64,000 bases of DNA, from the IMG/VR virus record IMGVR_UViG_3300026549_000030, positions 128,001 through 192,000 of that record. One strand, written 5' to 3'. The notes beneath the pieces are model-generated. The model was not told where the DNA came from. It did no database searches and worked only from the letters and a program-made list of their open reading frames with translations. This DNA comes from a virus. Taxonomy: Duplodnaviria; Caudoviricetes. Positions 12,582 through 52,764 of the stretch are shown here, one piece after another. Numbering within the stretch: the stretch's first letter is position 1; each line of letters starts with the position of its first letter. Made by a program: the position numbers and the translations under genes.

Positions 12582-13205
12582 CTATTCCCAAAAATTTGCA
12601 TCAATTATTCCGCCGCCGGCATTTTTAACTTCCTCGCCGTGTACGTTCATTGTTGGCGTAATCCAATGGTGATATAAACCATTGAAGTTTTCTACGCTGG
12701 GAATGGAATCCGCCCCATCGGCGTGCTTGAATTCATGCGTCCTAACAGGGTATCCCTTTTCATCAAATTTCCATCCATAGGGCATTACAAGTTCGCCATT
12801 AAGAATATCATTCTTGTCCTTCAAGATTGCATTACGATCCATTAATTCACGTGTAGCCGCCCTGAAAATTGCGGTTCCTCGTTTGTTCGTTTTAAGAAGA
12901 TTCTTTAATTCCTCGTAGCTAAGATCACGAACGTCCGAATAAGCCCCATTTGAAGATGTTACAACTTCATCTCCGCCTTCTTCGTCGTCAACTACAGCGG
13001 CGTCATTTGCATCTGCAGCTGCATTTTTTGCGTCATCGGCAGCTTCTGCGTCATCTTCTTTCTTTTTATCTTTATTGAACGCAGCCTTTGCCTTTTTATC
13101 GTTCTTTGCGGCGTTAACAATATCATCCACCCAATCCTCTTTAAGAACCTGAGAAATCGCCTCAGCTATGCATTCGTTCAATTCTTTTTCAGTTACCTTT
13201 GCCAT
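12582..13205 (-). CDS. Putative internal head protein with N-terminal targeting tag
   Basis: MAKVTEKELNECIAEAISQVLKE then an acidic Ala/Asp linker; last gene of a late operon. Confidence 0.6.
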   Translation of the reverse strand: MAKVTEKELNECIAEAISQVLKEDWVDDIVNAAKNDKKAKAAFNKDKKKEDDAEAADDAKNAAADANDAAVVDDEEGGDEVVTSSNGAYSDVRDLSYEELKNLLKTNKRGTAIFRAATRELMDRNAILKDKNDILNGELVMPYGWKFDEKGYPVRTHEFKHADGADSIPSVENFNGLYHHWITPTMNVHGEEVKNAGGGIIDANFWE

Positions 13206-13210
13206 ATCTT

Positions 13211-13849
13211 TTATATGTTTTTAGTTGCGTTATATTGTGGGGCCATATCCATTTTATACGTCGATTCGTTTGATTTGTCGTTCAACACATATACTTTCGC
13301 AGGAGAGTTCTTCAATGTTCCTCCGTATTTGACATTGTTAGAAACAAGTATGTCTACTTTGTGCTGTCCTGCGAAGCGCTTATTCATTGTGTCCTGTATT
13401 TGATAAACGCCGTCCTGAATTCCGTTGTATGTTCCTTCAATCTTAACTATATCTCCATACTTTAAGCCAAATTCACTCATCATCGTCCTTTCCATTGCGA
13501 TAATCTTATGTGCTTCTGGATTCTTTAAGTCTAATTTAAACATTGATGCGGTATGCCTGACGTCTGCGTTACATTGAGCGGGGACTGCATTATAAACAGT
13601 TACTATAACGTCATCGGCTATCATTTTCCACTCCTCCTGAGGAGCGGCGTATACAACCTCTGCTTCCATTTTCTGTTTCTGCGCGTCGTCGACCGTTTCC
13701 AAACCTGAAATGATTGATAAAGCCATTGCTACAGATATAGCTCCGACAGCAACTTTCTGAAGTAACGACTTGAAACTCTCGTTAAGAATTTGCTGTTCCA
13801 TAAGCGCGTTAAACTGCGCTTCCGTGAGGTATATCTTTTTCCCTTCCAT
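13211..13849 (-). CDS. 3D-domain (MltA/RlpA-like double-psi barrel) peptidoglycan hydrolase-like protein with N-terminal tag and hydrophobic helix
   Basis: VTVYN...TAS...IIAM...YGDIVKIEG...YQIQDTM...VDILV is the 3D signature; N-terminus MEGKKIYLTEAQ. Confidence 0.75.
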   Translation of the reverse strand: MEGKKIYLTEAQFNALMEQQILNESFKSLLQKVAVGAISVAMALSIISGLETVDDAQKQKMEAEVVYAAPQEEWKMIADDVIVTVYNAVPAQCNADVRHTASMFKLDLKNPEAHKIIAMERTMMSEFGLKYGDIVKIEGTYNGIQDGVYQIQDTMNKRFAGQHKVDILVSNNVKYGGTLKNSPAKVYVLNDKSNESTYKMDMAPQYNATKNI

Positions 13850-14754
13850 TATTCTGATAATGTGTGGTATAATTTTGAAAGATTAAGAACATCCTCAGTA
13901 AGTGTACCTTCTGAAAAAGCTTTTCCTTCAAGCTGTTGCTTCATTGCACTAAGGCGTGACTTTTCAGCGACGTCCTCGCGTTCACTAAGTATTTCATCAA
14001 TCTTATTAACGCAATCGCTCTTATATCTCTCGAAAAGTTCTTCTCTGCTGCCCTTTGAAAGATTTGTTGAAACAATATCCCAAATAGCTTTATTTTCCCA
14101 AGGCTCGAGTTCACTCTCATTAAGCGTAGAAACAAGTTCCTCTGATAAATCCTTTACGCCCTTATCGGTTTCTTCAGCTTTCTCAGGAACATTTGAGCAA
14201 ACGTGTTCTTTCAAGATAGAAAGCTTGTTGACGTGCTCGTAGATATTTTTTGCAGTCTTCTTATTTGTGATAAGATAATCAATTGCTGAGTTAACTTCCT
14301 TTGATTCTGAAACAATATTGTTAATCTGAGCGGCGTCCAAATTACCTTCAACAACGGCCTCAGCCACAATGTCTGAAAGTTTCTTCTTTCCCTCGTCGAG
14401 TTTCTTCTTATTGATATTGCTGGAAATTGAGAAAGTTTCAGAAAGGAAAAGATTCACGTCAGAGATATGTTCGGGTGAATTCACAATATGATAGATTGCG
14501 AACGCCTTACCGAGTTCTTTATTCTCCTTCAATGCCTTTACATATTTTCCGATAATCTTCTTTCCATTTTCCGAATCAAAAAGATTTACGGAAACAGACT
14601 CGAACAGAGAATTCAAGTCGCCAAGTGAAAGGTTGCTGAAATTTTCGATAGCTTCATTTAATTCTGCCTTCCTGATACGGTTTTCAAGAACGGAATTCAT
14701 TTCGTTCTTAAATTTTAACAAATCAGCACTTTTATCGAGATTGATATTTTTCAT
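13849..14754 (-). CDS. Helical head-assembly/core-like protein
   Basis: Directly downstream of portal, own TATTTATA motif, many LxE/IxE sites. Confidence 0.55.
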   Translation of the reverse strand: MKNINLDKSADLLKFKNEMNSVLENRIRKAELNEAIENFSNLSLGDLNSLFESVSVNLFDSENGKKIIGKYVKALKENKELGKAFAIYHIVNSPEHISDVNLFLSETFSISSNINKKKLDEGKKKLSDIVAEAVVEGNLDAAQINNIVSESKEVNSAIDYLITNKKTAKNIYEHVNKLSILKEHVCSNVPEKAEETDKGVKDLSEELVSTLNESELEPWENKAIWDIVSTNLSKGSREELFERYKSDCVNKIDEILSEREDVAEKSRLSAMKQQLEGKAFSEGTLTEDVLNLSKLYHTLSE

Positions 14755-14798
14755 AATAACTGTCTAATTTATTTATAAATACTTCTTTGGCGACGCTT

Positions 14799-16793
14799 TT
14801 ACAGGAGCTCTTTCTCATTCTGCTTATGCGTTTCTTCAAGTTTTTCAAGATCCTTGATAGCCATATTCAATTCTTCATTGATAAGGAAGTTTTTGTCGAG
14901 TAGCGCGACGCGCTCATTACTTATCTCTTCTGGGCTCTTACGCAGTCTCCTGATATAATTGTCTATATGCTCATAACCTGACTTCGCTTCCGCAAGTGGT
15001 GCTGAACCTTCTCCTCCTCCTTCTCCTCCGAGTGGAGTTGAAGCTTCCTCCCCACCGATTGAGCCCATATCATCAGCGCCCGGCTCGCCTAAGTCGCCAA
15101 GGTCGTCACCGAAGCCGCCGCCAATAGCAGGCGCACCGCCTCCGCCGCCTAAGCCGCCCATATCTTCCTGTCCAGGAATCTGCGGACTGTACTCTGCTCC
15201 GAGTTCCCCATAGATATTATCAACGTTGTCAAAGATATGCGTTCTCTTAATAATTTCAGGAGTGCGTTGAAGTTCAATAGCAACCGCTGCTTCAAGTCTC
15301 ATTTCGTCAAGTGTTTCAGCAATTTCAGAATCGCTCTTGCCCATAATGTCCCTCTGTACTTGGTGCCAAGACATAAGCGGAATTCCACCACCCTGTTCAG
15401 CGAGCGCCGCAGTAGCTGCATTGATTCTCTTAACCAAATTATCGAGTTCCATCATCTCGATTTGATTTGATGGATTATTTAGCGATAATGTGAAGTTGGT
15501 TAAATCGTCGTCATATCCCAAGATATGAAGGTGTATGATAGCAACCTTGTTGAGTTCCATAAGGACAGCCTGTTGAAGGCTGTTCACAGTACGGCTGAAC
15601 CTGATATCAAGGATTGAAAGGTTCTGCCCCTTACCCTGAGGCTCTTGGAAATTCAAATAAGACTTAGGAACACCCAATCCGCAAAGAACCTTATTCTCCA
15701 TGAAGTTGATATCATCCATAGATGTAATGTTCTGCGCTGAATTAAGGTTGTCGATAGACGTTGGATCCTGTCCAGGCCTTACAGGAATAACATAGTCAGC
15801 ACTAACATCAAGGAAATTCTTCCTCAAGTCAATCTGTCCCGTCTGAGGGTCAATAATAGGAGCCCTCTTAATGTTATTCATAAATTCCTGAAGGAATGCA
15901 GGAACGTCATTATCGTCAATTAAGCCGACATTTACCTTGAAAATCCTTCTTTCAACACTTCTTTCGAGACGATAGAGAAGCATTCCATCTTCCATCATAG
16001 AAAGCATTCTCCAATGCCTACGTGAGTGGTTCAACCAAGAAACGCCATATGGAAGATAAAGAGAATCATTAATAAGACGGAAGTGCGCAACCTGCCAACT
16101 CTTAAACGGAATCTGCTGATTGTGTCCTTCCCAAACAAATTTAACATCGTCAGGTTTAATGTTCTGTGTTACGCCGGCGGAAGCGTATGTTCCGGAATAT
16201 GCGTTAAGCATACCATTTTCCAAACGTGTAACCTCATGAACTGGAAGTTCTCTCCACCCAGTTACTCCGTTCTTTGCGTCAATGTTAAGGAACATAAATT
16301 CGTTACCGTATTTCGCGGTAGCACGCATAATAGTCTTACTCCAAAGATTGAAGTCAAGGCGGTTAATGAACAAATCTTCGAGTATCGCCTTAATTCTTGG
16401 GGATTTTGAATAGATATTCAGGATTTTTCCCTTTGAATTGATTGTGGTTGCCTCGTCAGAAACGATTGTCAATGCGCGTCCGATTTCAGGCCATGCGTCC
16501 ATTAAGTCCGCATCACGGTACATTACCTTGACTTGGCTCGCGCCAGCCATTTGTTCCATTGAGGTTTCGTAGCCAATCTTCTGCCATTGATAAGCAAGGA
16601 GGCGCTGCTGTTTCAATTCTTTCAGCTTAGCGTCCCTTTCAGCCTTGTCGTCGGTAGAGAAAATAACCTCAGAGCTTGGTGCGATATTGTATATTGCCGA
16701 TTTTGGTTGCTGAGCCGCCGTAGCAGGATATCCACGCGTTACTCCAATCATTACATCGGATAGTGTCTGTAGTCTGGTTCTTCTTTCAGCCAT
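14799..16793 (-). CDS. Portal protein (T4 gp20-like)
   Basis: WRMLSMMEDGMLLYRLERSVERRIFKVNVG and DIRFSRTVNSLQ are gp20-family motifs. Confidence 0.93.
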   Translation of the reverse strand: MAERRTRLQTLSDVMIGVTRGYPATAAQQPKSAIYNIAPSSEVIFSTDDKAERDAKLKELKQQRLLAYQWQKIGYETSMEQMAGASQVKVMYRDADLMDAWPEIGRALTIVSDEATTINSKGKILNIYSKSPRIKAILEDLFINRLDFNLWSKTIMRATAKYGNEFMFLNIDAKNGVTGWRELPVHEVTRLENGMLNAYSGTYASAGVTQNIKPDDVKFVWEGHNQQIPFKSWQVAHFRLINDSLYLPYGVSWLNHSRRHWRMLSMMEDGMLLYRLERSVERRIFKVNVGLIDDNDVPAFLQEFMNNIKRAPIIDPQTGQIDLRKNFLDVSADYVIPVRPGQDPTSIDNLNSAQNITSMDDINFMENKVLCGLGVPKSYLNFQEPQGKGQNLSILDIRFSRTVNSLQQAVLMELNKVAIIHLHILGYDDDLTNFTLSLNNPSNQIEMMELDNLVKRINAATAALAEQGGGIPLMSWHQVQRDIMGKSDSEIAETLDEMRLEAAVAIELQRTPEIIKRTHIFDNVDNIYGELGAEYSPQIPGQEDMGGLGGGGGAPAIGGGFGDDLGDLGEPGADDMGSIGGEEASTPLGGEGGGEGSAPLAEAKSGYEHIDNYIRRLRKSPEEISNERVALLDKNFLINEELNMAIKDLEKLEETHKQNEKELL

Positions 16794-16876
16794 AATCTTA
16801 CTTTTGCCTATATTGGCTTATCTTATAAATACTTTCATTCCACATTAAAATTAATGATTCTCCCGCTATAATCAAG

Positions 16877-18050: not shown

Positions 18051-20276
18051 TTACATATTACTTTTAGCGTCTTGTATTACGTCCTCAATCTGATCAAATC
18101 CAATCCAATCGGATTCGTTGTTTATATCAATTGCGAACACCTTGTGAACCTTACTGAAATCTTCAGGATACCAAATTGCAGGAACATTCTGTGAAGGAAG
18201 AAGGACAATTCCATATAATGTCACACCGTGGCACTTAAATTGGAATATTCCATTCGTTCCGATTGAAGGCTCATTGTCAAAATTAACAGGAGAAACTATA
18301 TTGTTGTTTCTCTTATTGATATCAATAATGTTGTATCCACCGCCCTTTGTTCTAACAGTAGTTACATTTACGCTGCTGTTTCCAATATTGCAATGAACAA
18401 TCTCATCACTTACGCTTGCGAATGCGTGCCTGAACTTCTGAACAGGATCGTTGTTTCTAATAGAACGTTCCTTCGCAGATTGGAAATCGAATAAATCGCT
18501 ATGCCAAGTTTTTCCGCAGTCAGTTGTGTATTGATAAGGGATAACTTGGTCGAAATTCCAACATACCATTGACAATCCGTCGTTTCCTCCGAAATATATT
18601 GCGCCCCTTACGTTATATTTTGAGAACAGATTCTGATATTTTGCTGAATTTCCATATCTACTATCGAACATAACGTGGAGCATTCCCGTCGTTCTGTTGT
18701 ACGAACCCACATTCATAGTATCTTGACAATTCTCAATGCGTTTTGCCATCCACCCCGACATTTCAGCCCATACGCTATCAGCAACGTCCTTAGGAAATAG
18801 GAAATAAACCTGGTCCTTCAATTGATATTTTCCCTTGTAAACTTTTTTAGCCCATTCCTCGTTGAAGATAAGGAATCTATTGAATCCGCCGTAGACAATC
18901 ATTTTAACGCCGCCTGCGTGAGTTTCCTTGTCATACTTGTAATATTGAACAGAATTAGGGTTAAGAACCGCGTAAACGCCCTCTCCGTACCAAGAGCCGT
19001 CGTTACTTCCAGCGAACTGCCTTAGCTGTCCATTTGAGAATATAGACTTGAAGTTGCTTGGAGCCGTAGCCCTATAAACATAACAAGTTCTCTTAGATAC
19101 AAATTCTTTCTCGTCTTTATCCGTAATCTCCTCTTCAAGATTTTTTCTAAATATCTCTCCAAGACTTTCAACGACTGGCTGATATCTATAATTTACCTTC
19201 TCGCGGTAATCAGCCAATATCTCGTCCATATTTTCCTTATTGAAAGGAAGCCATCCTTCTTCGTCATTAAGGTTAGGACGATGAAGATTTCTTAAATCGT
19301 TTTCAGGATACCAAATGGCAACAGTCTGATATGAAGGAAGAAAAACGGTTGCATACCAAGTCATTCCTCCGTATTTAAAGCTGAATACACCGTCCCTAAT
19401 TCCGGGAGAAGTGGGCTCCGATCCAAACCACACGTCGCTAATCACTTCAGGCTTAGGAGAAACAATGTTTTCAGTATCAACCTTTGCTATATTGTATCCT
19501 TCCCTTCTGTTTCTGATGACGCAATATAATTCATTATTTGTCTGAACCTTAACTGCGCTTGACTTATCAAAATCATCGAAAAACCCCTTTAATTGAAAAT
19601 CCCAATCGCAGCCCCTTTGATAGCGTTCCCTTGCATTGATATCAAAAACGTGTCTGAATTTATTTTTAACAGCGTCTTCGCTATCATATCTTGAAACATG
19701 CTCAGCAACATCCCAAAGTATTACAGAAGAGAAATCAAATGGAAGAACCGTAGCCACATAATCGTCATACATTATTCCGCGAATACCCCATTTTCTGCAA
19801 AGGCGAACGGTGTCGTCATATTGGTTCATTCTTACCCCGTTTGATTTTATAGCCGCAGCGTCATAAGGATCCTTTACAATAGTATCAATCTGCTCATTAG
19901 GTGTTAAATTCCTTCCGTAATATTTGATAACCTGTCGTTTAATTGAAGGATAATCGTCAGCATCAAACATTATATAGTTCTTAAATCCGCCAAGAACCTT
20001 TCCGCGAAGAATAACGTCGCCATACCCCTGTGCAGCACGACGAATTCCACCACTAAGCTCGAGAGATGCATAAACGCCCTCACCGCGCATTGTTCCTCCG
20101 TCCCCCGCAAGCTGATGTTGGAATCCGTGTTCTATATAGCTTTCAAGGTGCTGAGAACGGATAGCCTTGTATATACTTGGGCACGATGCAATATCCGAGT
20201 CAGAAGGAAGATTCCTCGCCTCGGATAGTACAGCATTTCTAAATGCCTCAGAGATAATATTTTTCAATTTACCCAT
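18051..20276 (-). CDS. Tandemly duplicated ADP-ribosyltransferase/PARP-like domain protein, putatively virion-packaged
   Basis: Two ~350-aa homologous halves, each with Y[KR]A[IT]...G...GEGVYA, resembling the PARP/ART H-G-T...YG.GIY core. Confidence 0.55.
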   Translation of the reverse strand: MGKLKNIISEAFRNAVLSEARNLPSDSDIASCPSIYKAIRSQHLESYIEHGFQHQLAGDGGTMRGEGVYASLELSGGIRRAAQGYGDVILRGKVLGGFKNYIMFDADDYPSIKRQVIKYYGRNLTPNEQIDTIVKDPYDAAAIKSNGVRMNQYDDTVRLCRKWGIRGIMYDDYVATVLPFDFSSVILWDVAEHVSRYDSEDAVKNKFRHVFDINARERYQRGCDWDFQLKGFFDDFDKSSAVKVQTNNELYCVIRNRREGYNIAKVDTENIVSPKPEVISDVWFGSEPTSPGIRDGVFSFKYGGMTWYATVFLPSYQTVAIWYPENDLRNLHRPNLNDEEGWLPFNKENMDEILADYREKVNYRYQPVVESLGEIFRKNLEEEITDKDEKEFVSKRTCYVYRATAPSNFKSIFSNGQLRQFAGSNDGSWYGEGVYAVLNPNSVQYYKYDKETHAGGVKMIVYGGFNRFLIFNEEWAKKVYKGKYQLKDQVYFLFPKDVADSVWAEMSGWMAKRIENCQDTMNVGSYNRTTGMLHVMFDSRYGNSAKYQNLFSKYNVRGAIYFGGNDGLSMVCWNFDQVIPYQYTTDCGKTWHSDLFDFQSAKERSIRNNDPVQKFRHAFASVSDEIVHCNIGNSSVNVTTVRTKGGGYNIIDINKRNNNIVSPVNFDNEPSIGTNGIFQFKCHGVTLYGIVLLPSQNVPAIWYPEDFSKVHKVFAIDINNESDWIGFDQIEDVIQDAKSNM

Positions 20277-25601: not shown

Positions 25602-27470
25602 TTAACGAAGCTCGTTGATATCCCAAGTCTGGAGTCCGTTTGCAACGATAGCGCCGTAGTAGCGGTTGTTAACCATCTTCTTAGCGTAACGAGTGATGAT
25701 ACCCTTAACAGGTGCGAAGTTAGCGCTGTTGTAGATAGTAGGAGTTAACTGCATAGGCACATAAGGTGCATAGATGTAACCTGTGTCGAGGAGGCTATCG
25801 CCCTTGTGTCCGATGATAGCGGACTCTGCAGGTGAATAAGGATCCACGAACACGTTGTAGCGGCCCTGGAGTGAACCAACCTTCTCAATACCCATTGAGT
25901 ATGTCACAGCCTCAGCGTTAGCGTCGGTTACGTGGAAGTACTCAAGGTCGTTGAGCATAGCGTTGATTTCGGTAGAAACAACCACGAAGTTTGCACCACC
26001 ACGAAGAGTTGACTTGTGAATCTGTGCAGAAATCTGATTGATCTTTGTCATGAAGGTCTGGTTCCAGTCCTTCTGAGTGTAGTTCGTTGAGAAACCACCC
26101 TGACGTCTCCAACCGTTGTAGTCCCACTTAAGCTGCCAAGGAGAAGCCTTGCGGAGGTCGCGGAGGATCTCACGGTCGATTTCAGCAGCAATCTGCTCTG
26201 AGAGGATAGCTGTAAGCTCAGCCTCAGCGTCGATGTTGTGGAATGCGGCAACGTCCTGAGCGAGTTCAGGAGACCATGTAGCACGGAGCTTGCGCTCGTC
26301 AACAGACACGGTAACATCTGAAAGCTTGAAGGAAACCTCACCGATTTCGGTTTCGAGCTCGAGAGAGTCATACTGTGCCCAAGCAACCATGAACTTGCTG
26401 TTCACGTCGTCAACGCTGATAGCGTCGCTTGCTACACCGATATAACCATCGAGAGTTGTTCCAGGAACCTTCACAGGTTTTGCAAGGTCGAGTTCAAGAT
26501 AAATCTTGCCTTCGGCGTCGCAAGGGTTGGAGTACTCCACTAAGCCCTTACCATAGCGCTGTGTAACGCAACGGAAGTGAACGGGCTCGCCCTTCTTGAA
26601 GCAAGCAAACTGGGTTTCGCCAGAAGCTGCAGCTTCGCCGATGTCTTCCTTAGCAACTACTCTAAGTGAAGCGAGGAATGACTCAGTGTCCATTTCGTTT
26701 CCGTCAGGACCTGTGAGCTTTGAAGCACGGAATGAAGAGAAACCGCTAACCTCAACGATAATGTTGCGGACGGAATCGTCAATACCGCATACAGGAAGAG
26801 TGTCAACATCCTTATAGTCGCCGTTGAAAGCAATGCGAACAGGCTTTACAGCACCAACGCGGATATGAACCTTACCCTTTGAATGATCGAAAAGACCATC
26901 ATTGTAGAAGAGGTCGTAAAGGCTCTTCTTGAAGAAGTGCACAACCTCAGGAGTATTACCAGACTCGTCGATATTTACAACCTCGTCAGGGAGATAGTAA
27001 CGCTGGCGAACTGCGCCGTCATAGTTACCTTCCTCGTCACGGTGGTTGCGCTCAACGCGGTCGTAACCCATAAGTCCGTAGTGAGAAGCAGTAGCTCCGT
27101 CAAGATTCTCCTTGTCGCCTTCGAACCTGCGCTCTGAAGTAACAGGAAGAATGAAGAAAAGTTTGCCGATAGGCATGTTCATAGCCTGAACGGACACGAT
27201 GTCGTTAGCAAGAAGACGTGAGAAAACACGACGTACTAACGGGAACACAACAGTCTCGAATGAACCGCTGTTGGATGCATCAGAAGCTTCCTTAAGAAGG
27301 ATGTGAGCTTCGTTCTCGAAAAGGGTAGCCATATTCTCTTTGAGATATCCGGTAAGACCCTTTGTGAAGCCGATGTTGTCCCAACGCTCCTGGATCATTT
27401 TGCGAGCCTCTTCATGTTTGCCAGTGGAAATGTTACCAACCTGGCCGCCTTGTAAGAAGTTTGATACCAT
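25602..27470 (-). CDS. Major capsid protein (T4 gp23-like)
   Basis: RKLRATWSPELAQDVAAFHNIDAEAELTAILSEQIAAEIDREI and GYIYAPYVP...RY are gp23 motifs. Confidence 0.96.
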   Translation of the reverse strand: MVSNFLQGGQVGNISTGKHEEARKMIQERWDNIGFTKGLTGYLKENMATLFENEAHILLKEASDASNSGSFETVVFPLVRRVFSRLLANDIVSVQAMNMPIGKLFFILPVTSERRFEGDKENLDGATASHYGLMGYDRVERNHRDEEGNYDGAVRQRYYLPDEVVNIDESGNTPEVVHFFKKSLYDLFYNDGLFDHSKGKVHIRVGAVKPVRIAFNGDYKDVDTLPVCGIDDSVRNIIVEVSGFSSFRASKLTGPDGNEMDTESFLASLRVVAKEDIGEAAASGETQFACFKKGEPVHFRCVTQRYGKGLVEYSNPCDAEGKIYLELDLAKPVKVPGTTLDGYIGVASDAISVDDVNSKFMVAWAQYDSLELETEIGEVSFKLSDVTVSVDERKLRATWSPELAQDVAAFHNIDAEAELTAILSEQIAAEIDREILRDLRKASPWQLKWDYNGWRRQGGFSTNYTQKDWNQTFMTKINQISAQIHKSTLRGGANFVVVSTEINAMLNDLEYFHVTDANAEAVTYSMGIEKVGSLQGRYNVFVDPYSPAESAIIGHKGDSLLDTGYIYAPYVPMQLTPTIYNSANFAPVKGIITRYAKKMVNNRYYGAIVANGLQTWDINELR

Positions 27471-27504: not shown

Positions 27505-28950
27505 TTACTTTTTAAAGAGATTGTCCATTCTGTTCATAAGGTCAATCGAAGGATCGTTGACGTTCTGATAAATGGTTGTCTCATTTAAATTTTTTGATTC
27601 AGCAACGAATTGCTTCTCAATTGCGGGTTTTGAATTTACGGATTCCTTAAGTTCTGACTTAATTGTCTCGTAAAGGTTCTTGCCCTCTGTGAGTGTCTTA
27701 ACAGCGTTGAAGCGCTCGCAGATTCTCTTCTTCTCGTCCTTGGTTGTTGTCTCATTCACAAGAATATCGACAAGCTTGCCCATATTGACGTTGAGAACAG
27801 CAGCCTCATACAGGCTCTTCTTAATCTTATTAATGCACTCAACATATTGTTTATTTTCGGCCTGAATAGCCTTTGCCTTTGCGACAATCTTAGTTACAGA
27901 TTCGCGGAGAGCCTTGTACTCACCATCCTCAGATGACTGATGCTGGTTCTGTGCACCACGATTAATGTGGTTTGTGCTCTTCTTGTTAGCGTGCTTAGTG
28001 TTAAGTCCGCTTCCGTCCTCTTCAAGATTTGCATCAAGATTTGGATTAGCAGGCTCGTTTCCACAAGCTGCGCCACACTCGTTGACTGACTTCTCGAATG
28101 GCTTGCTGTCGCCCTTTCCTGCCCATGGTTTCTCAGAGCCCTTAGGTGCGCCTTCATCCCAATCGTTAGTAGTCTTTGAATCGGCAGGCTCGTTCATATT
28201 GAACTTCTTGTCGAATACGTCCTTCTGATAAGAGTCAGTGTAACCGAGGTTTTCCTCGTTAAGCTCTTCCTCATTGTCATCATTAAGGTCGATTTCGATA
28301 TCGCCGTCCTCATCTCCGCCAAGATTAATGTCAATGTCGTCGTCTCCGGCTTCGCCCTCAATGTCAACATCTTCACCACCGTCTACATCTGCGGTATCAT
28401 CGCTTCCGGCTTCGCCACCCAGTGCATCAGGATCAAGTTCAATCACGAATTCGGCGCCAGTCTCGTCATCCTTCACAGAATAAGTTCCGTCATCTTCCTT
28501 CTTTACGAAGATTTGGTCGTCATCCCCGAGTTTGTTGTAGACTTTGAGAATTTCATCTCCATCCACGCCCGTGAAATCATAATCATTGTCACCAACCTTG
28601 TACTGTTCAAAATCTGACCATTCATCGTCATCGGCATTGCCCTCATCAGAGCCTTCCTCGCCTTCCTGTGAGAAATCCTCTTCGCCTGCTCCCTCTTCGG
28701 GTGCCTCGGCGTCGTTATCCTCACCGCCTTCATTGTCAGTTACTGCAGGAACATCCTCGGTATTGACATCCTCTACGCTATAACCGTCTTCCTGTTCCTC
28801 TTCCTCGCTATGGTCTTCCTCTTCCATCACCAAATTGGCGATAGTTTCGTTTACGATAGCACGAAGAGACTTCTCGGTGCCTTCCTGTAATGCCTTTGTA
28901 ATCTTCTCGGCATCACGGATAGTTTTTTCAGCCGTATTATTTTTTTTCAT
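27505..28950 (-). CDS. Prohead scaffold/core protein (gp22-like position)
   Basis: Very acidic, C-terminal coiled coil, located between protease and capsid genes, many LxE sites. Confidence 0.8.
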   Translation of the reverse strand: MKKNNTAEKTIRDAEKITKALQEGTEKSLRAIVNETIANLVMEEEDHSEEEEQEDGYSVEDVNTEDVPAVTDNEGGEDNDAEAPEEGAGEEDFSQEGEEGSDEGNADDDEWSDFEQYKVGDNDYDFTGVDGDEILKVYNKLGDDDQIFVKKEDDGTYSVKDDETGAEFVIELDPDALGGEAGSDDTADVDGGEDVDIEGEAGDDDIDINLGGDEDGDIEIDLNDDNEEELNEENLGYTDSYQKDVFDKKFNMNEPADSKTTNDWDEGAPKGSEKPWAGKGDSKPFEKSVNECGAACGNEPANPNLDANLEEDGSGLNTKHANKKSTNHINRGAQNQHQSSEDGEYKALRESVTKIVAKAKAIQAENKQYVECINKIKKSLYEAAVLNVNMGKLVDILVNETTTKDEKKRICERFNAVKTLTEGKNLYETIKSELKESVNSKPAIEKQFVAESKNLNETTIYQNVNDPSIDLMNRMDNLFKK

Positions 28951-29062: not shown

Positions 29063-29776
29063 TTAGTCGTTAAGATGAAGCCATTCATCAAATTCTGAGA
29101 ATTTATCTTCCTTAATAAGAGTTCCTTCCTTCTTTTCAGACTCAATGTATGGACGTAATTTCTCAGGATTTTCTTCAATCCAAGCCTGCGGAGTTGAAGG
29201 CTGACTAACTGCGTCCCAACACACAATATCGTAGTCGTCACCAACAATGAGACTTCCCATTTGCTGCGTAACACTTCCAAGCCCGCGAGAAGAAACGCCA
29301 ACCTTCAATCCAGAAAGTAACCACTGAGCGAGGATATCCGCACAAGTGTAGACTCCACCGTGGTCTCTGAATCCGTCAGAGATTGGAATTTCCATTTTAC
29401 CAACAAGGGTATGTCCTTCCCAATGGAGTTCTATGATATTAAGTGCGATTCGACTAAGGTCTATTGCGCTGCTTTCGGGGTGGTTTAACTCACCGTATGC
29501 ACGCCTCTCAGCTATTGCCGTTTGATATTTTTCAACCTCTCTCTTGAGAACGTTCTCAGGATATATACGTCCGTTAGCATTTTCAATTCCGAACTTTTGG
29601 AAAACAGCGGAAACAACAAATGGATTCGGGAGTACGCGTCTTGATGTAGCGTCCCCTGCGTTAATCGCTTCCATTATAGGCCTGTTAGCCTCCGAGTTCA
29701 TCGACACATATCCGTCATTCTCAATCAGAAGCCCGGTTCCTACTTGTCCTTTCTTAATTTCTGTTATCACATTCAT
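29063..29776 (-). CDS. Prohead core protease (T4 gp21-like, S77 family)
   Basis: NANGRIYP, GELNHP, GVSSRGLGS and WDAVSQPS motifs. Confidence 0.93.
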   Translation of the reverse strand: MNVITEIKKGQVGTGLLIENDGYVSMNSEANRPIMEAINAGDATSRRVLPNPFVVSAVFQKFGIENANGRIYPENVLKREVEKYQTAIAERRAYGELNHPESSAIDLSRIALNIIELHWEGHTLVGKMEIPISDGFRDHGGVYTCADILAQWLLSGLKVGVSSRGLGSVTQQMGSLIVGDDYDIVCWDAVSQPSTPQAWIEENPEKLRPYIESEKKEGTLIKEDKFSEFDEWLHLND

Positions 29777-33157: not shown

Positions 33158-33886
33158 TTACTTTTTACTTCCGTTAATTTGTGTTTTACCCTTCCAAGCT
33201 TTCGGGGTTTCCTTCGGGACTTTCTTATCGCTCACTTCCTTAGGACGTTTCTCGTCAGTGCAAGCGTTCATAAGTTCCATAAGAGATTTCTTCGTATACT
33301 TCTCCTCATTAACGGGCTGCTGCATATCCATAGGCTTATCGTCCATAGGAATTTCTTCGTCACCGACAGTTGGCTCTTCTACTGGCTCTTCCTCTGTTTC
33401 GTCCGATGAAGCGGAATTTATTTTCTCAATCAATTCCTTCTTAGCCTTTTCATCAAGATTCTTGCAAGCCGCTGAAATTATCATACTTGCAACATATTTT
33501 GATAATCCTGCGTCAGGGCCCTGTTCATTATTGAATGAATTGAGGGACTGAGAAAGCTTCCCTGTCAATTGCTGAATGTAATGCTTAGGGTCCGTTTCCT
33601 CGTCAGCCTCAACACCTGCGTCAAAATTCGTATCGAACTGATTGCTTGCTCCATCGTCAGTCATTTGTGCATTCGGATCCATTGAAGGATCGATAGGAAC
33701 GCCCGCAGGGTCTCCCGTTGGGCCCGTAGGTCCCATTGGCACTGCTGCCGTCATAGGGTTTTCCTCAGGCATTGGAGGCATAGACGATTGTGCGTTACCA
33801 ACCTTGATAACCTTCCTGTTCTCTCTCAGAACTTTGTCTATGATAGAGAGAATTTGCCCCTCCTTTATCTGTATCTTTTCGCTCAT
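33158..33886 (-). CDS. Tagged acidic/Pro-rich putative head core protein
   Basis: MSEKIQIKEGQILSIIDKVLRE; TATTTATT upstream. Confidence 0.65.
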   Translation of the reverse strand: MSEKIQIKEGQILSIIDKVLRENRKVIKVGNAQSSMPPMPEENPMTAAVPMGPTGPTGDPAGVPIDPSMDPNAQMTDDGASNQFDTNFDAGVEADEETDPKHYIQQLTGKLSQSLNSFNNEQGPDAGLSKYVASMIISAACKNLDEKAKKELIEKINSASSDETEEEPVEEPTVGDEEIPMDDKPMDMQQPVNEEKYTKKSLMELMNACTDEKRPKEVSDKKVPKETPKAWKGKTQINGSKK

Positions 33887-45880: not shown

Positions 45881-48583
45881 ATGGCAACACAGCCAATTAA
45901 AAACACATCCAATTACGAAAAATATTTCTCAAACGAGATAAAGAAACTTCTTAATGAGGTTGTATTAAATGTTGCTCAGGAAACTATTCCCGCAAATTCG
46001 ATTGCGCCAGAAATATTTTTCATAGCCGCACTCGGCTACCCTGATTGCATGCTATATAAGGCAGTTAACGGATATCTTACGACGTTAAAAATCGACGAGA
46101 TATACGACAAGCTCGTATTGTATGCACAGGATAAATATGCGCTTGCTTCTGCGCGTCCGAACAGGATAATCGACTATTCACCTGAAATGAGAACGCTGTT
46201 CCAAAAGGCTAACGCCGAGCGCTCAGAATTAAACGATAAACTAATCACGTCAGACCATGTTCTGCTCGCGGTTCTAAATGAGAAAACAAAAGCATACGAC
46301 AAGATTCAAGAATTATTTGAAAGAGAACGTCTGACTTATAATATCGCCAAGGACCTTTCACGGAAGCTACACACCACGACAGATATAATTGCTTCAAACG
46401 CAGAGGAAGAAGACGGTGCGGAAGATATTCCAGATGCATTCAAGGCAATGCTTAACAACTACGACAGATATATAAGTGGTGTTGACACCGCAGCCGACGA
46501 CTCTGGTGGTTTAGACTCGATAACGATTGTCGGAAATCTGCCAAGTGGAGTAGATCCTGAATCCTTCATGGAAGAATTAAAGAACAGCCTCAATGGAGTA
46601 ATTGCGAACAACGCGAAGAAGGAAACGAAGAAGAATGCAAATGGTTGGACGAAAGCGCCATCATTTTCCAAGAGTCTAAATGAAGCGGCAGACAAGGGAC
46701 TCATTGATACAATTATCGGGCGGCAGAAGGAAATCGACTTAATGGCGAAGATATTCGGCAGAAGAAAATGTAACAACGTTCTTTTAGTGGGAGAACCTGG
46801 CGTCGGCAAGACTGCAATTGTTGAAGGACTTGCGAGACAAATTGTTGACGGCAACTCACCCGCAAGCCTTAAGAACTGCAAGATATTCGAACTCAACTAT
46901 TCCGATATGATGGCGGGAACGCAATTCAGGGGAGTATTTGAGGACAGACTTTCTTCATTCATAAAGGAAATAAATAAAATTGAGAACGCAATTCTTTTCA
47001 TAGATAACGTTCACAATATATTTGCAGAAAGGCAAAGAAATGATTATGATTTCTCCGGCATTCTTTCAACACTTCTTTCGGAGGCGAACGTTAAGGTTGT
47101 AGCGACGACAACGCCAAAGGGATACCACACAACATTTGAGGGCGACCCTGAGTTAAGACGTAAATTCCAGAAGGTTACTGTTGACGCTCCGTCTATCGAC
47201 GAGAGCATAGAAATCCTTATGGCTAATAAGGAATATTATGAACAATATCACGGTGTCACATACTCAGACGAGGCTATCAAAGCTTGCGTAACGCTCTCAA
47301 GCCGATACATTACCGACAGAAACCTTCCTTCCTCAGCAATGGATATTATGGACGAAGCCGGCTCAAGTAAAAAGAACGGACTTATCGAACCTGAGGGAAT
47401 CAGGAAGAAACGCAACGCGATTGCTCTGTTCAAACGCGAGAAAGAAAACTTCATTAAGGAAGATAAAATCAAAGAAGCCACAGACGCAAACAACAAGATT
47501 GAAGGGCTGAAACTTGAAATAGCGAAGGAAATGGATACGTATTCCAATCCTATGAAGAAAAGGGACGACACTGTTTCCGTTAACGATATCTATAAGGCAA
47601 TATCAGAGCAAACCAATATTCCCCTTCAAAAGCTTGATGTATCCGAGAAGAAAGCTCTTTCAAATATTGACAAGATATTGAAGAAATCTATTATCGGACA
47701 GGACGAAGCGATTGATGTGGTGTCAAGGGCTATCAAGAGAAACAAGGTTGGACTCACGCCCGCAAACCGTCCGATATTCAGTTGTATCTGCATTGGTAGC
47801 ACAGGAACGGGTAAAACCCTTATGGCAAAGAAACTCGCTCAGGAAATATTCGGCGACGAGAAATACCTTGTTCGTTTTGATATGTCGGAATATTCAGACG
47901 AAACTGCCGTGAACAAACTTATCGGTGCTTCAGCAGGATATGTCGGATATCACGAGGGAGGATTGCTCACAGAGGCTATTAAGAATAAGAAGCACGCCGT
48001 TCTGCTCATAGACGAAATCGAGAAAGCCAACGAGAAAATTTATAATCTGTTCCTTCAGGTACTCGACGAAGGTTTTCTTACTGACAACACAGGGCAAAAG
48101 GTTGATTTCAGAAACACGATTCTGATAATGACTTCGAACATTGGCGCCAAGAGAGCCGCTACGGAAAAGGGTATTGGCTTCGCGGTTGACGATAATGCAA
48201 ATAAGAAGGATATCATTGAGAAGGAACTCAAGAATAAATTTCCTCCTGAATTTATTAACAGAATTGACGAAATTGCATATTTCAACAACTTGACAGACGA
48301 TAATCTTAGAGATATTATCAGGCTCGAGCTTAATAAACTCAAGGCAAAGATTGAATCGCTCGGGCACACGTTCGATTATGACGACGGTTCCGTTGAATAT
48401 GTCTTTGAGAAAATTTCGAAGCAGAAGGAATACGGCGCCCGTCCAATCCTCAGGGCAATACAGTCAGAGTTCGAGAATAAAATAACAGACTTGCTTATCG
48501 ACAACGAATTCACAAATCACCACTTCAACTCTTTCATTGAATATGAAGAGGGAGGAAACGGAAAACGACTGATTATAAACTAA
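45881..48583 (+). CDS. ClpC/ClpB-family double AAA+ ATPase with IGF loop
   Basis: Clp N repeats, GEPGVGKT, YITDRNLP, GSTGTGKT, DMSEY, GYVGY, IDEIEKA, IGF, PEFINRID, YGARP. Confidence 0.9.
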   Translation: MATQPIKNTSNYEKYFSNEIKKLLNEVVLNVAQETIPANSIAPEIFFIAALGYPDCMLYKAVNGYLTTLKIDEIYDKLVLYAQDKYALASARPNRIIDYSPEMRTLFQKANAERSELNDKLITSDHVLLAVLNEKTKAYDKIQELFERERLTYNIAKDLSRKLHTTTDIIASNAEEEDGAEDIPDAFKAMLNNYDRYISGVDTAADDSGGLDSITIVGNLPSGVDPESFMEELKNSLNGVIANNAKKETKKNANGWTKAPSFSKSLNEAADKGLIDTIIGRQKEIDLMAKIFGRRKCNNVLLVGEPGVGKTAIVEGLARQIVDGNSPASLKNCKIFELNYSDMMAGTQFRGVFEDRLSSFIKEINKIENAILFIDNVHNIFAERQRNDYDFSGILSTLLSEANVKVVATTTPKGYHTTFEGDPELRRKFQKVTVDAPSIDESIEILMANKEYYEQYHGVTYSDEAIKACVTLSSRYITDRNLPSSAMDIMDEAGSSKKNGLIEPEGIRKKRNAIALFKREKENFIKEDKIKEATDANNKIEGLKLEIAKEMDTYSNPMKKRDDTVSVNDIYKAISEQTNIPLQKLDVSEKKALSNIDKILKKSIIGQDEAIDVVSRAIKRNKVGLTPANRPIFSCICIGSTGTGKTLMAKKLAQEIFGDEKYLVRFDMSEYSDETAVNKLIGASAGYVGYHEGGLLTEAIKNKKHAVLLIDEIEKANEKIYNLFLQVLDEGFLTDNTGQKVDFRNTILIMTSNIGAKRAATEKGIGFAVDDNANKKDIIEKELKNKFPPEFINRIDEIAYFNNLTDDNLRDIIRLELNKLKAKIESLGHTFDYDDGSVEYVFEKISKQKEYGARPILRAIQSEFENKITDLLIDNEFTNHHFNSFIEYEEGGNGKRLIIN

Positions 48584-49252: not shown

Positions 49253-49255
49253 AAG

Positions 49256-51610
49256 TTATTTTTTGTTAGCAATTTCTCGAAGAATATCCTTTGCGTAATC
49301 CTCGTTACGTTTTTCTCGTAAAAATTGTCGGCACAAAGCCTTAAACTGTGCTTCGCTAAGATAAATTTTCCTTCCCGTATTTTTAGCAACCAAGTCCCTT
49401 GCCTTAGCTTTAATCTTATCAACAGTTTTGTTATCGCCCATTTCCTTATTAACTTTATATTTGTTTCTTAATGATTGTGAATATCCTGCTCTTTCAGAGG
49501 ATTGCCATCCGTTATACGGTGCACTTACAGCCTTTTTTTCGTTGCCGTTAAATGCGTCGGGCGTTTTGTTGTGGTCTCCCGTATCTCCTATTCCACTCAA
49601 ATATCTGGCAATCTTTCTATCGCCAGAATGGCGGTTAAGATTGGAATCCTTGCGAAGCGCAATAGCCATTCCATCATTGAATAGAATAGCATTGTCCGAG
49701 TCATTACTGTAAGGAGTGTCCTCAAATGGCTCACCGACAATCATATCGTCCGTAATTTCAGACGGATTTACGCTGTGTCCATATATGAATGCGCAAGGAA
49801 ACGTCCTAACACCGCCATTGTTTGAAATCTTTATTCCACCGTGTTCTTTCGCTAATTTAGCAAGTATGTTAGATGAAAAATCTTCGTTAATCATATCTTT
49901 ATTCCAGTTTTCAATATTTGATGGATCCCTTCTTTTCTTCAAATTTTTCAATGCTTTCCCAACATTAAAGCTTTCCCTTACAAACGGTACCGTCCCGTAA
50001 TATTTTCCGCATTTATCACAGATAAATACAGGTTCTCCATGTATTTGTACGCAAACATTTCCGCCGCATTCGCACTTCTCGGGAATTTCATTTCCCTCAT
50101 CGTTTTTTCTCCTTTTTGATTCCTGTAATGAGCCACCACCAGTAACTGTGCTGCAACTTTTCGAGCCGCCTTCTATGAAAGCAGAGGCAAGATTACCTCG
50201 GCAGTGCCCAACGTCCAACGCCCTGTCTATAAGCATAAGAATATCACCGGGCGACATATTTTCAGAAAACTCCTTTATAATGCTGTAAAGCGGAGTAAGC
50301 CCATAGTCACTCCAACCGTCACTTCCGTCAGGAAGCTTAGACCAATCATAAAAGCCCATGCTATCAAGCAGCTTCCATCCGTCCGAGTATCCCTCAACCT
50401 CCTTTCCGAGGACATACTCAACGTCTTCAGAAGGAAAATATGAACTGTGCCCCGCAAATTCGGTTATATATGAAATTGAAAGTGTGTTGTGGATTACAAT
50501 GTCAAACCATGACAAGACGGTATTCAACGGAATTCTTGCCATAGCAGGCTCTTGAAGAAATCTTTCACGGATATTCCTGTACTGCTCGAATGGAATAAGA
50601 TTCCACCTCTTCTGTGTAATCCCGTTTTCTTTGTCCCTGACAAATTCGCTAAGCAAATCGGCAGGCGAATAATCTTCCATCGCGCTATATAGACGGTCAG
50701 AAACCCCCTCATTAAGTCTATGTATTCTTGCAACCTGCCCCTCTTCAACATTTATCCACGCAATATCAGATGTTGGAAGCGTCTCTGAGAAAATTTTCCC
50801 TCCGCCTGCGTAATCCTTCGCGCACATTTTTGACGTTGTTATGAAATTTCCGTCAGTAATCGGCTTAGAACTGTAAACGGTTATCCTTCCAGTCTTTAAC
50901 GCGTCTTCGAGAACGGAGTTGGGAGTATCAGGGTAAGAGGAATATGTTCCGTATTCGTCAAAATCAGCTTTAGCCTCAGCCATTGCTTCCTCAAATGTCT
51001 TTATATCGTCAACCTTTCGTATCCCCGTATGATAATCGTCAAGCATTGGATTGGTATCATTAATGATACTAAGCTGCGTTTCCTTGTTCTCCGTGAGGCG
51101 GACGTACTTGGCAAATGGTTTTCTTTGGCGATACCCGTCATACAGCCATTTTTTGAATTTATCCAAATTAACTTCCGTTATGTATTTGAATCCTTTCCAA
51201 TCTTTTTCGTAATTAGAAAGATACGCTGCTTTTGCCTCTTCTGCCGTATTGAATCCGAGCATAACCTTCGTCTCGTCAAATTCATTTCCGTTGAACTGAT
51301 CAATAGGAAATACCTTTTCAGAGTTAAGGTTCGGTCCAAGGAAAACATCTATCGCGTCGCCATCCTTTCCAACCGTCTTGGTGAAATACCCATAATCGTT
51401 GTGCATAAGTGTTTTCCACTCGTGCCCGTTCTTATCTTTTCCGCGACGATAGCTCCCCTTCGGATTCTCAATTGTAATCTCAAATCCGAGAACACGGAAG
51501 TGCCCCTTCTTATAATTTCCAGCACGAATTTGTCCGAGTGTTGGATTTGTATCAACACTTCCGCGTGCAAGCTTTATATCATCTGTTATTGTTTCGTTTA
51601 TTTTTTGCAT
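49256..51610 (-). CDS. Multidomain polyvalent-type protein (InPase-like, ART-like, zinc ribbon, unknown domains) with C-terminal targeting tag
   Basis: GNYKKGH...ITIENPKGS.RRG...YGY..GKDGDAIDVFLG...FDETKVMLGF matches the polyvalent-protein inorganic-pyrophosphatase domain; CECGG...CDKCG; start ATG 51610. Confidence 0.7.
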   Translation of the reverse strand: MQKINETITDDIKLARGSVDTNPTLGQIRAGNYKKGHFRVLGFEITIENPKGSYRRGKDKNGHEWKTLMHNDYGYFTKTVGKDGDAIDVFLGPNLNSEKVFPIDQFNGNEFDETKVMLGFNTAEEAKAAYLSNYEKDWKGFKYITEVNLDKFKKWLYDGYRQRKPFAKYVRLTENKETQLSIINDTNPMLDDYHTGIRKVDDIKTFEEAMAEAKADFDEYGTYSSYPDTPNSVLEDALKTGRITVYSSKPITDGNFITTSKMCAKDYAGGGKIFSETLPTSDIAWINVEEGQVARIHRLNEGVSDRLYSAMEDYSPADLLSEFVRDKENGITQKRWNLIPFEQYRNIRERFLQEPAMARIPLNTVLSWFDIVIHNTLSISYITEFAGHSSYFPSEDVEYVLGKEVEGYSDGWKLLDSMGFYDWSKLPDGSDGWSDYGLTPLYSIIKEFSENMSPGDILMLIDRALDVGHCRGNLASAFIEGGSKSCSTVTGGGSLQESKRRKNDEGNEIPEKCECGGNVCVQIHGEPVFICDKCGKYYGTVPFVRESFNVGKALKNLKKRRDPSNIENWNKDMINEDFSSNILAKLAKEHGGIKISNNGGVRTFPCAFIYGHSVNPSEITDDMIVGEPFEDTPYSNDSDNAILFNDGMAIALRKDSNLNRHSGDRKIARYLSGIGDTGDHNKTPDAFNGNEKKAVSAPYNGWQSSERAGYSQSLRNKYKVNKEMGDNKTVDKIKAKARDLVAKNTGRKIYLSEAQFKALCRQFLREKRNEDYAKDILREIANKK

Positions 51611-51627
51611 TTTTATGCCGTCAAATA

Positions 51628-51639
51628 TATTTATAAATA
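51628..51639. promoter_or_regulatory. Palindromic pair of overlapping divergent late promoters
   Basis: TATTTATAAATA gives TATTTATA on both strands, between divergent genes starting at 51610 and 51671. Confidence 0.65.
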
Positions 51640-51670
51640 GTGTTTTATACATTAAAAATAGGCTTTTATA

Positions 51671-52477
51671 ATGAAAAAGACAATAACGGAAAGACAGATA
51701 AAGGGCGCAATAGAAAATGTAATTCTTGAATATTTTAAGTCACCCCGAAACGCAAAGGCTCCTCAACAGCCGACGGCTCAACAAGCTAATGCGGAAGATG
51801 ATGACGAAAAATATAATCAAGTCCCAAAGGTTAGAAGTGGAAAGGAATGGCACGAAAAGGGAGGAAATTTCCCAATTGTTAGGGACGGAAAGACCTTTTA
51901 TGTGTCACGTTCAGTCGCCGTATCATTCTATGCCTTCTGCCAAGACAGGAATGGGGAATGGTGTGTTCTCGCAAATAAGAGAGGACCAGGTGCCCCGAAT
52001 AACAGGGGCAGGTGGAATGTTATCTGCGGATACCTCGATTATGGCGAGACTGCGGAAGAGGCGGCATTAAGGGAGTGTTGGGAAGAATGCGGACTCAGAT
52101 TGGACCCATCAGTTGTAAAACAACAGGGTGTCAACTCAAAATCAGAGAACGTAACAATAAGGTTCGCAGCCGTTCTTTCAGGAACAACAGACAACTATCC
52201 GCTTTCTATGGATAATTGCGAGCCGGGAGAAGTGACTTCCGTTGCTTGGGTTCCGCTATCAAAAGTGCCAATGCTCGAATGGGCGTTTGGACAGGGACAC
52301 AAGATTCTTCCTCAGGCTAAGACTTCTATCGGCTATGATGAAAAAACAATGAAATGCAATACCGACTTAACGTATAAGATTAATGCGCTCAAAAGCGAAC
52401 TGAGGGGAAACAACCCATATGCATTCCAATTGTTCTCGCAAATATTACAGGAGCTTAAAGAATACAGAATGTTATGA
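51671..52477 (+). CDS. Nudix hydrolase with N-terminal targeting tag
   Basis: Nudix box GYLDYGETAEEAALRECWEECGL; N-terminus MKKTITERQIKGAIENVILE. Confidence 0.88.
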   Translation: MKKTITERQIKGAIENVILEYFKSPRNAKAPQQPTAQQANAEDDDEKYNQVPKVRSGKEWHEKGGNFPIVRDGKTFYVSRSVAVSFYAFCQDRNGEWCVLANKRGPGAPNNRGRWNVICGYLDYGETAEEAALRECWEECGLRLDPSVVKQQGVNSKSENVTIRFAAVLSGTTDNYPLSMDNCEPGEVTSVAWVPLSKVPMLEWAFGQGHKILPQAKTSIGYDEKTMKCNTDLTYKINALKSELRGNNPYAFQLFSQILQELKEYRML

Positions 52478-52764
52478 TAAAAATTTATTTGACAGAAGCT
52501 CAGTTAAACAACTATCTTAGAACGCTTTGCGAGGAAGAATATAATATCAAAAAGAAAATCGGCCCATTCGCAACACAAGAAGAAGCAGCCGCAGAACTTC
52601 ACAGGCTTAGGAAAGAAAACGGATTCTCTGACAATGACAGCTTCATTGAAGGAAATTATATTGTCCTATACATCGAAATGGACAGATTTGACGACGATTA
52701 CGTTGGAAACCTTTTAACTAATATAGATAAAAAATACGGAAAAGTTGCTGAAAGCCGCGATTAA
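52474..52764 (+). CDS. Tagged small putative internal head protein
   Basis: MIKIYLTEAQLNNYLRTLCEE. Confidence 0.65.
   Translation: MIKIYLTEAQLNNYLRTLCEEEYNIKKKIGPFATQEEAAAELHRLRKENGFSDNDSFIEGNYIVLYIEMDRFDDDYVGNLLTNIDKKYGKVAESRD

Follow-up and report, generated by a model that had tools for sequence, protein, structure and literature searches.

A 64,000-nucleotide window (bases 128,001-192,000) of the 241,996-bp IMG/VR virus record IMGVR_UViG_3300026549_000030, a record that CheckV estimates to be ~68% complete, encodes a short peptide tag that recurs on otherwise dissimilar proteins. The tag is an amphipathic helix of ~16-22 residues, and it is probably this clade's own analogue of the bacteriophage T4 capsid targeting sequence (CTS), serving to load late proteins into the head and then being clipped off. 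The window phage is a distant T4-like jumbo phage, the nearest cultured relatives by major capsid protein (MCP), which include Flavobacterium phage immuto and Microcystis phage Mel-JY01, being 30-39% identical. It was compared with five uncultured IMG/VR relatives that were fetched whole (G001-G005, the window phage being G000), the portal proteins of which are 57-68% identical to that of the window; the six genomes comprise 1270 proteins in all.

The tag is real and under selection at the peptide level. The motif [KR][IVT]x[ILV][TS]ExQ, by which an initial annotation of the window had recognized it, has 7 matches in 72,985 aa of called proteins against 0.09 expected; shuffled proteins (200 shuffles) yield at most 1 match, and in six-frame translation all 7 matches lie in the coding frame. 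The five close N-terminal matches that had been listed are all present: MEGKKIYLTEAQ at 13849 (-), MKRVIVTEKQ... at 32847 (-), MKSIHITEEQ... at 33152 (-), MKKTITERQ... at 51671 (+) on a Nudix protein (Pfam E 9e-15) and MIKIYLTEAQ... at 52474 (+). So are the two copies reported away from N-termini, one from 37796 within gene 37370-38176 and one near ~49378 (49313-49372), close to the C-terminus of an InPase protein. Because the copies vary without constraint in their codons for Thr, Glu, Gln and Leu, the tag is selected as a peptide; a DNA-level element, such as a promoter or recombination site read as peptide, is ruled out by this synonymous variation together with the lack of matches in other frames. 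Chance or composition is ruled out by the 7 matches against 0.09 expected and by the class A profile described below, which has 0 matches in four more distant phages.

Two sequence classes of the tag can be told apart. The class A profile was built from 11 clear copies in the genome of the window phage and iterated over the six genomes with a threshold of 10 bits, at or above which it finds 43 copies, the next score being 8.3; its consensus is [KR][KR][IV]x[ILF]TExQ followed by a helix, and its near-invariant columns are Thr (41/43), Glu (42/43) and Gln (43/43). Class B is a longer related peptide (consensus IKLNESxLRxIIKESVxxVLxE; 61 copies at >=10 bits) that often stands at the start of orthologs of class A-tagged proteins, with near-invariant columns of Glu (53/58, 51/60 and 38/38) and Leu (57/59). 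Merged, the two classes amount to 100 copies in 92 of the 1270 proteins; 71 of the copies are N-terminal and 23 internal, and the other 6 stand no more than 30 residues from the C-terminus. The tagged share is 6.9% in the window phage (18 of 262 proteins) and rises to 14-15% in the fragments G004 and G005. The copies and leader-like segments in the window are:

13778..13849 (-), class A leader MEGKKIYLTEAQFNALMEQQILNE of gene 13211-13849, 23.3 bits, with a hydrophobic segment after the leader
13137..13205 (-), class B leader MAKVTEKELNECIAEAISQVLKE of gene 12582-13205, 24.0 bits
32800..32847 (-), class A leader MKRVIVTEKQQRIINE of gene 31672-32847, 10.1 bits
33093..33152 (-), class A leader MKSIHITEEQLAQLKERITE of gene 32850-33152, 18.0 bits
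37802..37849 (+), internal class A tag RKIYITESQYNRIISE of gene 37370-38176, 24.1 bits
49313..49372 (-), near-C-terminal class A tag RKIYLSEAQFKALCRQFLRE of the InPase polyvalent protein 49256-51610, 17.3 bits
51674..51730 (+), class A leader KKTITERQIKGAIENVILE of the Nudix protein 51671-52477
52477..52533 (+), class A leader IKIYLTEAQLNNYLRTLCE of the 96-aa protein 52474-52764, 20.0 bits
20223..20276 (-), weak leader-like N-terminus MGKLKNIISEAFRNAVLSE of the 741-aa protein 18051-20276, 4.3 bits, sub-threshold
33821..33886 (-), sub-threshold leader-like N-terminus MSEKIQIKEGQILSIIDKVLRE of gene 33158-33886

The looser variants proposed in the initial annotation fared unequally: that at 13205 is a strong class B copy (24 bits), that at 20276 is weak (4.3 bits), and those at 33886 and 37305 fall below threshold. 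At their N-termini, orthologs of the 741-aa protein have different amphipathic helices terminating in [IL]xE, and orthologs of gene 31672-32847 have strong or variant leaders. Gene 13211-13849 is the second gene downstream of the portal gene, and its ortholog G004_77651 carries the same tag; it has a named family in neither Pfam nor PHROGs, and the 3D domain formerly ascribed to it finds weak support in a protein-atlas cluster with the 3D family in 14% of its members and none in Pfam. Gene 12582-13205 encodes an acidic protein that, by comparison of gene order with T4, stands in place of gp67/gp68. The product of gene 33158-33886 (-) is a Pro/Met/Gly-rich protein of 242 aa, the first 25 residues of which are leader-like in the window phage only; its orthologs in four relatives, as called, start downstream of the leader-like segment.

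The tag is portable between proteins. With the tags masked, the class A copies (n=43) belong to 24 families without other similarity, and orthologs exchange a class A for a class B leader or have none. In the Nudix family, the window protein consists of a class A leader and a 45-residue low-complexity linker ahead of the enzyme domain (in its AlphaFold2 model, residues 7-23 are helical, residues 24-58 are disordered, and the Nudix fold is modelled confidently from residue 66 on), a class B leader heads one G002 ortholog, and a G002 paralog and the G004 ortholog begin directly at the Nudix domain. The internal copies are located at module junctions, and modules switch between stand-alone genes and polyproteins exactly at tags. 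In gene 37370-38176, the tag separates a conserved C-terminal module from an unrelated N-terminal module that has an acidic linker, the former being a stand-alone tag-headed gene in G001 and G002 and standing behind a tag within longer proteins in G000, G004 and G005. The 798-aa protein 49256-51610 contains a polyvalent-type InPase domain (PF18823, E 1.8e-51), Pfam naming no second domain, and its modules also occur in relatives in different arrangements: the InPase module stands behind a tag at residue 368 in G005, behind tags at residues 4 and 28 in G004, and upstream of a class B tag in G001 and G002. The start of this gene is more likely to be 51610 (MQKINE...) than 51652. A nucleotidyltransferase (NTP_transf_2) encoded by a separate untagged gene at 35648-36553 (-) is fused in G005 to the C-terminus of the tagged InPase polyprotein. 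A purely N-terminal address thus describes 71 of the 100 copies and is too narrow for the remaining 29.

The window also contains a T4-type prohead core, consisting of a gp20 portal, an acidic scaffold the gene for which is flanked by those of the protease and the MCP, and a gp23 MCP that has a predicted N-terminal propeptide ending in hydrophobic-x-Glu, besides the large terminase:

14799..16793 (-), portal protein, gp20 family (Portal_T4, E 1.5e-70)
23182-25053, large terminase
25602..27470 (-), MCP, gp23 family (Gp23, E 8e-71), with a predicted maturation site LLKE61↓A (the arrow marks the cut) at nt 27288-27299
27505..28950 (-), acidic scaffold protein in the gp22 position, with a tag-like N-terminal helix at residues 25-43 (nt 28822-28878)
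29063..29776 (-), prohead protease, gp21 homologue (Peptidase_S77, PF03420, E 3.4e-24; PHROG 207)

The identification of the gp21 homologue, made previously from the sequence by eye, was borne out by the Peptidase_S77 match and by the LNHP and GVSSRGLGS catalytic motifs, which align with the catalytic His and Ser of T4 gp21; an N-terminal ITE of the window protease likewise aligns with LIE-9 of T4 gp21. The T4 protease cleaves behind the Glu of [LI]-x-E; when P1 is Asp instead, processing is blocked but targeting is retained (PMC9026906). Because T4 Alt is cleaved at ITE-6 and at LTE-619, T4 evidently uses both N- and C-terminal propeptides (PMC5694885). Related sites in the T4 record sequences are FLTE65↓A in gp23, MAKINE/LLRE in gp24, MEGLIE in gp67 and LIE-9 in gp21. 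The tag of the six phages holds two to three [ILV]-x-E triplets, these being [ILF]-T-E and [IL]-x-E in class A and L-[NT]-E, I-[KR]-E and L-[NKS]-E in class B; the density of [ILV]xE is 9.7 per 100 aa in tags versus 1.87 in the proteome, a ~5-fold difference.

The MCP provides a point of comparison that is independent of how the tag was defined. In all six phages it has a conserved [LM]L[KNS]E↓[AS] (LLKE61↓A in the window), which in the alignment is a few columns downstream of the T4 gp23 cut LTE65↓A and ~25 residues before a conserved VRR motif; the class B consensus closes with this predicted maturation tetrapeptide. An N-terminal helix common to the scaffold orthologs (window residues 25-43, TEKSLRAIVNETIANLVMEE) scores 4-9 bits with the class B profile (window, 8.4), and the scaffold, with 26% Asp+Glu, has hydrophobic-N-E-[TS] sites that are conserved across orthologs.

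The distribution of the tag among genes suggests a late function. Its absence from early genes, which had been noted by eye, was confirmed by profile search (0 of 72 genes in the early array beyond 201 kb), and no tag was found among the 86 genes of operons headed by the Bacteroidota host-type TAnnTTTG promoter motif. The 7-mer TATTTAT, plausibly a late promoter judging by its placement, is 11-fold enriched in intergenic DNA, is sense-biased (46 genes versus 19), occurs upstream of only 2 of the 72 early-array genes, and precedes the portal, scaffold, protease and other structural genes in the window; the MCP gene has no TATTTAT of its own and starts 34 nt after the scaffold gene. The earlier statement that all tagged operons are headed by this motif is largely but not wholly correct: an automatic walk assigned it to 12 of 18 tagged genes, and four more in the window were recognized by eye. 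GTATTTAT stands immediately upstream of the ATG at 37370, and a palindrome that reads TATTTAT each way occupies the 60-nt gap between the divergent InPase and Nudix operons:

51629..51640 (both strands), palindromic TATTTATAAATA

The tagged InPase and tagged Nudix genes are thus divergent neighbours; Iyer et al. predict that InPase polyvalent proteins are packaged in the virion and injected, and report that InPase domains adjoin or are fused to NUDIX (PMC5512222). Tagged genes lie within 12 kb of portal, MCP or protease genes more often than untagged genes do (36/92 versus 183/1178; odds ratio 3.5, p 2e-7, the six genomes being pooled and syntenic orthologs counted as independent). No tag was found on the tail sheath, baseplate wedge and baseplate hub proteins identified by PHROGs.

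The tag extends well beyond the six genomes. A search of 1.84 billion representative proteins with the class B profile returned 5918 clusters at E <=0.001 and 212 at <=1e-10; the best 150 of these worldwide matches have 2-4 copies each, 126 of them with a copy in the first ten residues and 23 with a copy at the very C-terminus. The motif corresponds to no Pfam family, the worldwide class B proteins are without informative names in the source databases, a literature search with tag peptide strings found no relevant paper, and a homology search with the first 40 residues of one tagged protein returned only that protein. The class A starting profile had no match in 1.43 Mb of four more distant T4-like phages. 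In the complete 484-kb phage LR756508 there are 19 class B-like leaders, those that were translated mostly heading small genes; several are located at 152-162 kb, around an S77 protease gene at 156.5-158.1 kb, so that the putative association of tag and protease genes is repeated in a distant lineage. An IMG/VR contig of 113 kb (G006), which has 9 tags, has no protease in the portion available, an absence that is uninformative given a completeness of 32%. Flavobacterium phage immuto has two weak class B-like N-termini. Two adjacent genes of that phage (MW353176.1 117587-118887; L042:2703-4003) share another leader, M..NF.L..FL.ENKLT.N...LKE, and other T4-like clades may have tags of their own.

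We infer that tagged proteins undergo docking to the scaffold, cleavage, packaging and injection, in a sequence of events that would run as follows: the tag helix, probably mimicking the N-terminal helix of the scaffold itself, would attach late proteins to the prohead's acidic scaffold core; the gp21-type protease would cut after Glu at two or three [ILV]-x-E sites, freeing the cargo in the head; and the cargo would be ejected later together with the DNA. Modules strung in polyproteins would be served in the same way by the internal and C-terminal copies. A delivery system for head cargo had already been suggested in the initial annotation by reference to T4, and the suggestion fits all the computational tests that were run (protease, site match, late and head association, portability). 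Because no homology to T4 sequences is detectable, the tag is to be regarded as an analogue and not a homologue of the T4 CTS.

Several points weigh against this interpretation. The phage is uncultured, and the case is built from sequence. The tag profiles give no significant match to T4 head proteins, and the whole T4 genome gives one weak internal match (trna.3) and none in the ip genes. Two T4-like phages with an S77 protease lack both classes of the tag and a third has two weak class B matches only; because S77-bearing T4-like phages without the tag exist, the link between tag and protease is not universal. Just ~40% of tagged genes are near head genes, and the pooled proximity statistic treats syntenic orthologs as independent. 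The putative late promoter is assigned from a 7-mer consensus. The 29 copies that are internal or C-terminal go beyond an N-terminal address, and the protease rule by itself accounts neither for the invariant Gln of class A nor for how long the helix is.

Two alternatives to head loading differ from it mainly in the binding partner of the helix. If the motif were simply punctuation for the prohead protease or some other protease, with targeting, if any, carried out by other parts of the protein, then the dense [ILV]xE sites, the invariant Glu, the internal copies at module junctions and the 2-4 copies per protein among the top worldwide matches would be as expected. However, a bare site needs 3-4 residues, yet an amphipathic helix of 16-22 residues is retained with conserved hydrophobic spacing; 71% of the copies are at the extreme N-terminus, where a cut frees just a short peptide; a similar helix is found on the scaffold; and the short propeptide of T4 both targets and is cleaved (PMC9026906). 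We consider it unlikely that processing is the sole function. The converse proposal, that the tag is a generic docking or oligomerization helix that binds another shared partner (DNA, neck or chaperone) in the manner of a coiled coil, its likeness to protease sites being incidental, draws on the hydrophobic positions every ~3-4 residues in a Glu/Lys-rich sequence, on the many tagged genes far from head genes and on the copies at either end of proteins. It would not lead one to expect that Glu at polar positions is almost never swapped for Asp, Gln or Lys, that the end of the tag is identical to the predicted MCP maturation site, or that the identified tail proteins are untagged, and we rate it as rather unlikely.

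Two further proposals depend on other enzymes of the phage. The tag could mark proteins for unfolding or timed degradation by a phage Clp system, since genes for two ATPases, one ClpX-like (41708-42802, +) and one ClpB-like (45881-48583, +), and for ClpP (G000:C1:79459-80058, -) are present in the phage, and both ATPases are retained in 5 of 5 relatives; the N-terminal run of Met, basic and hydrophobic residues in the tag is, moreover, loosely like an N-terminal degron class of ClpX. Such a role is very unlikely, given that internal and C-terminal copies exist, that invariant acidic residues are unexpected in a degron of this kind, that the ClpX-like gene is behind the host-type TAnnTTTG early promoter motif whereas the tags are on late proteins, that AAA_2 ATPases are also found in phages without the tag, and that it would leave the agreement with MCP and scaffold sites unaccounted for. 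A strict link to Clp ATPases was not supported: AAA_2 is present in three of the four distant phages, all three of which lack class A and two of which also lack class B. The ClpX-like ATPase has no zinc-finger domain, and the ATPase at 45881-48583 is of a two-ring ClpB/ClpC-like type. Least probable of all, in our estimation, is a leader for a modifying enzyme, in the manner of peptides that are made on ribosomes and modified after translation (RiPPs). The one candidate enzyme would be the glycosyltransferase of the head cluster, the gene for which (30063-31685) has the protease gene on one side and tagged genes on the other and holds the same place in relatives, and Thr is invariant in class A; in class B, however, the corresponding position is not a conserved Thr but N, T, S or K, and no enzyme was found that tracks the tag. 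A leader for radical SAM/SPASM enzymes was rejected, there being no Radical_SAM (PF04055) or SPASM (PF13186) match in the 242-kb record (~68% complete).

Loading into the head followed by clipping remains the interpretation that we prefer for the six phages. Its widest form is that the 22-residue helix and its TExQ variant constitute a universal load-and-clip address of a large, mostly uncultured T4-like jumbo branch, in which a mimic of the scaffold helix, usable at any position of a protein, would deliver injected cargo that makes up 7-15% of the proteome and thousands of families; this we regard as an open bet, with the odds slightly against it.

Three other observations concern the head gene cluster. 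The 540-aa glycosyltransferase encoded at 30063-31685 (-), which is TOD1/MUCI70-like with a weak GT8 match and keeps its position in relatives, may glycosylate virion proteins. The 531-aa protein encoded at 33981-35576 (-) has the top codon-bias score of the window, has no family match and is mostly of low complexity; with conserved ends, a long acidic middle and many hydrophobic-x-Glu sites, it looks like a second scaffold or a major internal head protein. The S77 protease frame is split by an in-frame insert of ~165 residues in G002 (G002:C1:118974-120218) and of ~330 residues in LR756508 (LR756508.1:156507-158102), which breaks the Pfam match into two in each case and may be an intein or other inserted domain.

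If the head-loading interpretation is true, a simple profile search could serve to list the first-strike effectors of uncultured jumbo phages from gut and rumen, in a set that would cover anti-defence proteins, Nudix and InPase enzymes and polyvalent proteins and that ~5900 clusters already match. The tag would also be a second packaging tag for phage-based protein delivery, longer and naturally modular, beside the T4 CTS, and it would account for polyprotein cargo that is cut apart without built-in peptidases.

Short terminal helices are known to address cargo to the inside of an HK97-fold shell, as is proposed here, in the case of encapsulin cargo-loading peptides and HK97-type scaffold-binding helices. 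Unlike the proposed tag, these bind directly to the shell protein, and no maturation protease removes them; to our knowledge there is no homology between them and the tag. A closer parallel is offered by phiKZ, 201phi2-1 and SPN3US, in which propeptides of head and ejection proteins are cut by gp21-related S80 proteases at [ASG]-x-E (PMC5694885, PMC10052503). Like the window phage, as interpreted here, these phages have many head proteins processed after Glu, multi-site propeptides, and large internal protein loads in jumbo phages, as well as paralogs with identical N-termini (gp53 and gp54 of SPN3US). They differ in having no single portable consensus tag over dozens of unrelated families, in the residue at P3 (Ala/Ser/Gly versus Ile/Leu/Val here) and in the protease subfamily.

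Polyvalent proteins are multi-module effectors for which packaging, injection and a subsequent division into units have been predicted (Iyer, Burroughs, Anand, de Souza and Aravind 2017, PMC5512222); the InPase domain, one of their signature domains, is present in 49256-51610, with the Nudix gene adjoining. Their processing has been ascribed to built-in zincin-like metallopeptidase (MPTase) domains (PMC5512222), whereas here the junctions hold a leader with sites of the prohead-protease type. The leader here is also found on single-domain proteins, another difference from the polyvalent proteins.

The system most like the one proposed is the CTS of the T4 internal proteins, which reportedly goes back to Mullaney and Black in 1996. 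This sequence is found on IPI, IPII, IPIII and Alt propeptides and is processed by gp21 (PMC9026906, PMC3012670, PMC5694885). In common with it, the tag is short and is shared by fast-evolving proteins that are not otherwise related; within it is the [LI]-x-E motif of a phage-encoded gp21-family protease, including the triplets ITE and LTE, both of which are cut in T4; it is accompanied by the T4-type prohead gene set (portal, protease, acidic scaffold and gp23 MCP); and it occupies putative propeptide positions at the N- and C-terminus, as in Alt. In contrast to the CTS of ~10 residues, the tag is a helix of 16-22 residues with two or three tandem sites and two interchangeable sequence classes; it is carried by ~7-15% of the proteome versus 4-5 proteins in T4, is frequent within polyproteins, and is found on proteins that include Nudix and InPase enzymes; the putative host phylum also differs, being Bacteroidota. 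No homology between the two is detectable, and the system of the window is known from sequence alone. The principle has been known from T4 for decades, and the concept is established there; what is new here is scale, form and taxon, not kind, and the gain would lie in breadth, in predictive use and in the mechanism of scaffold mimicry.

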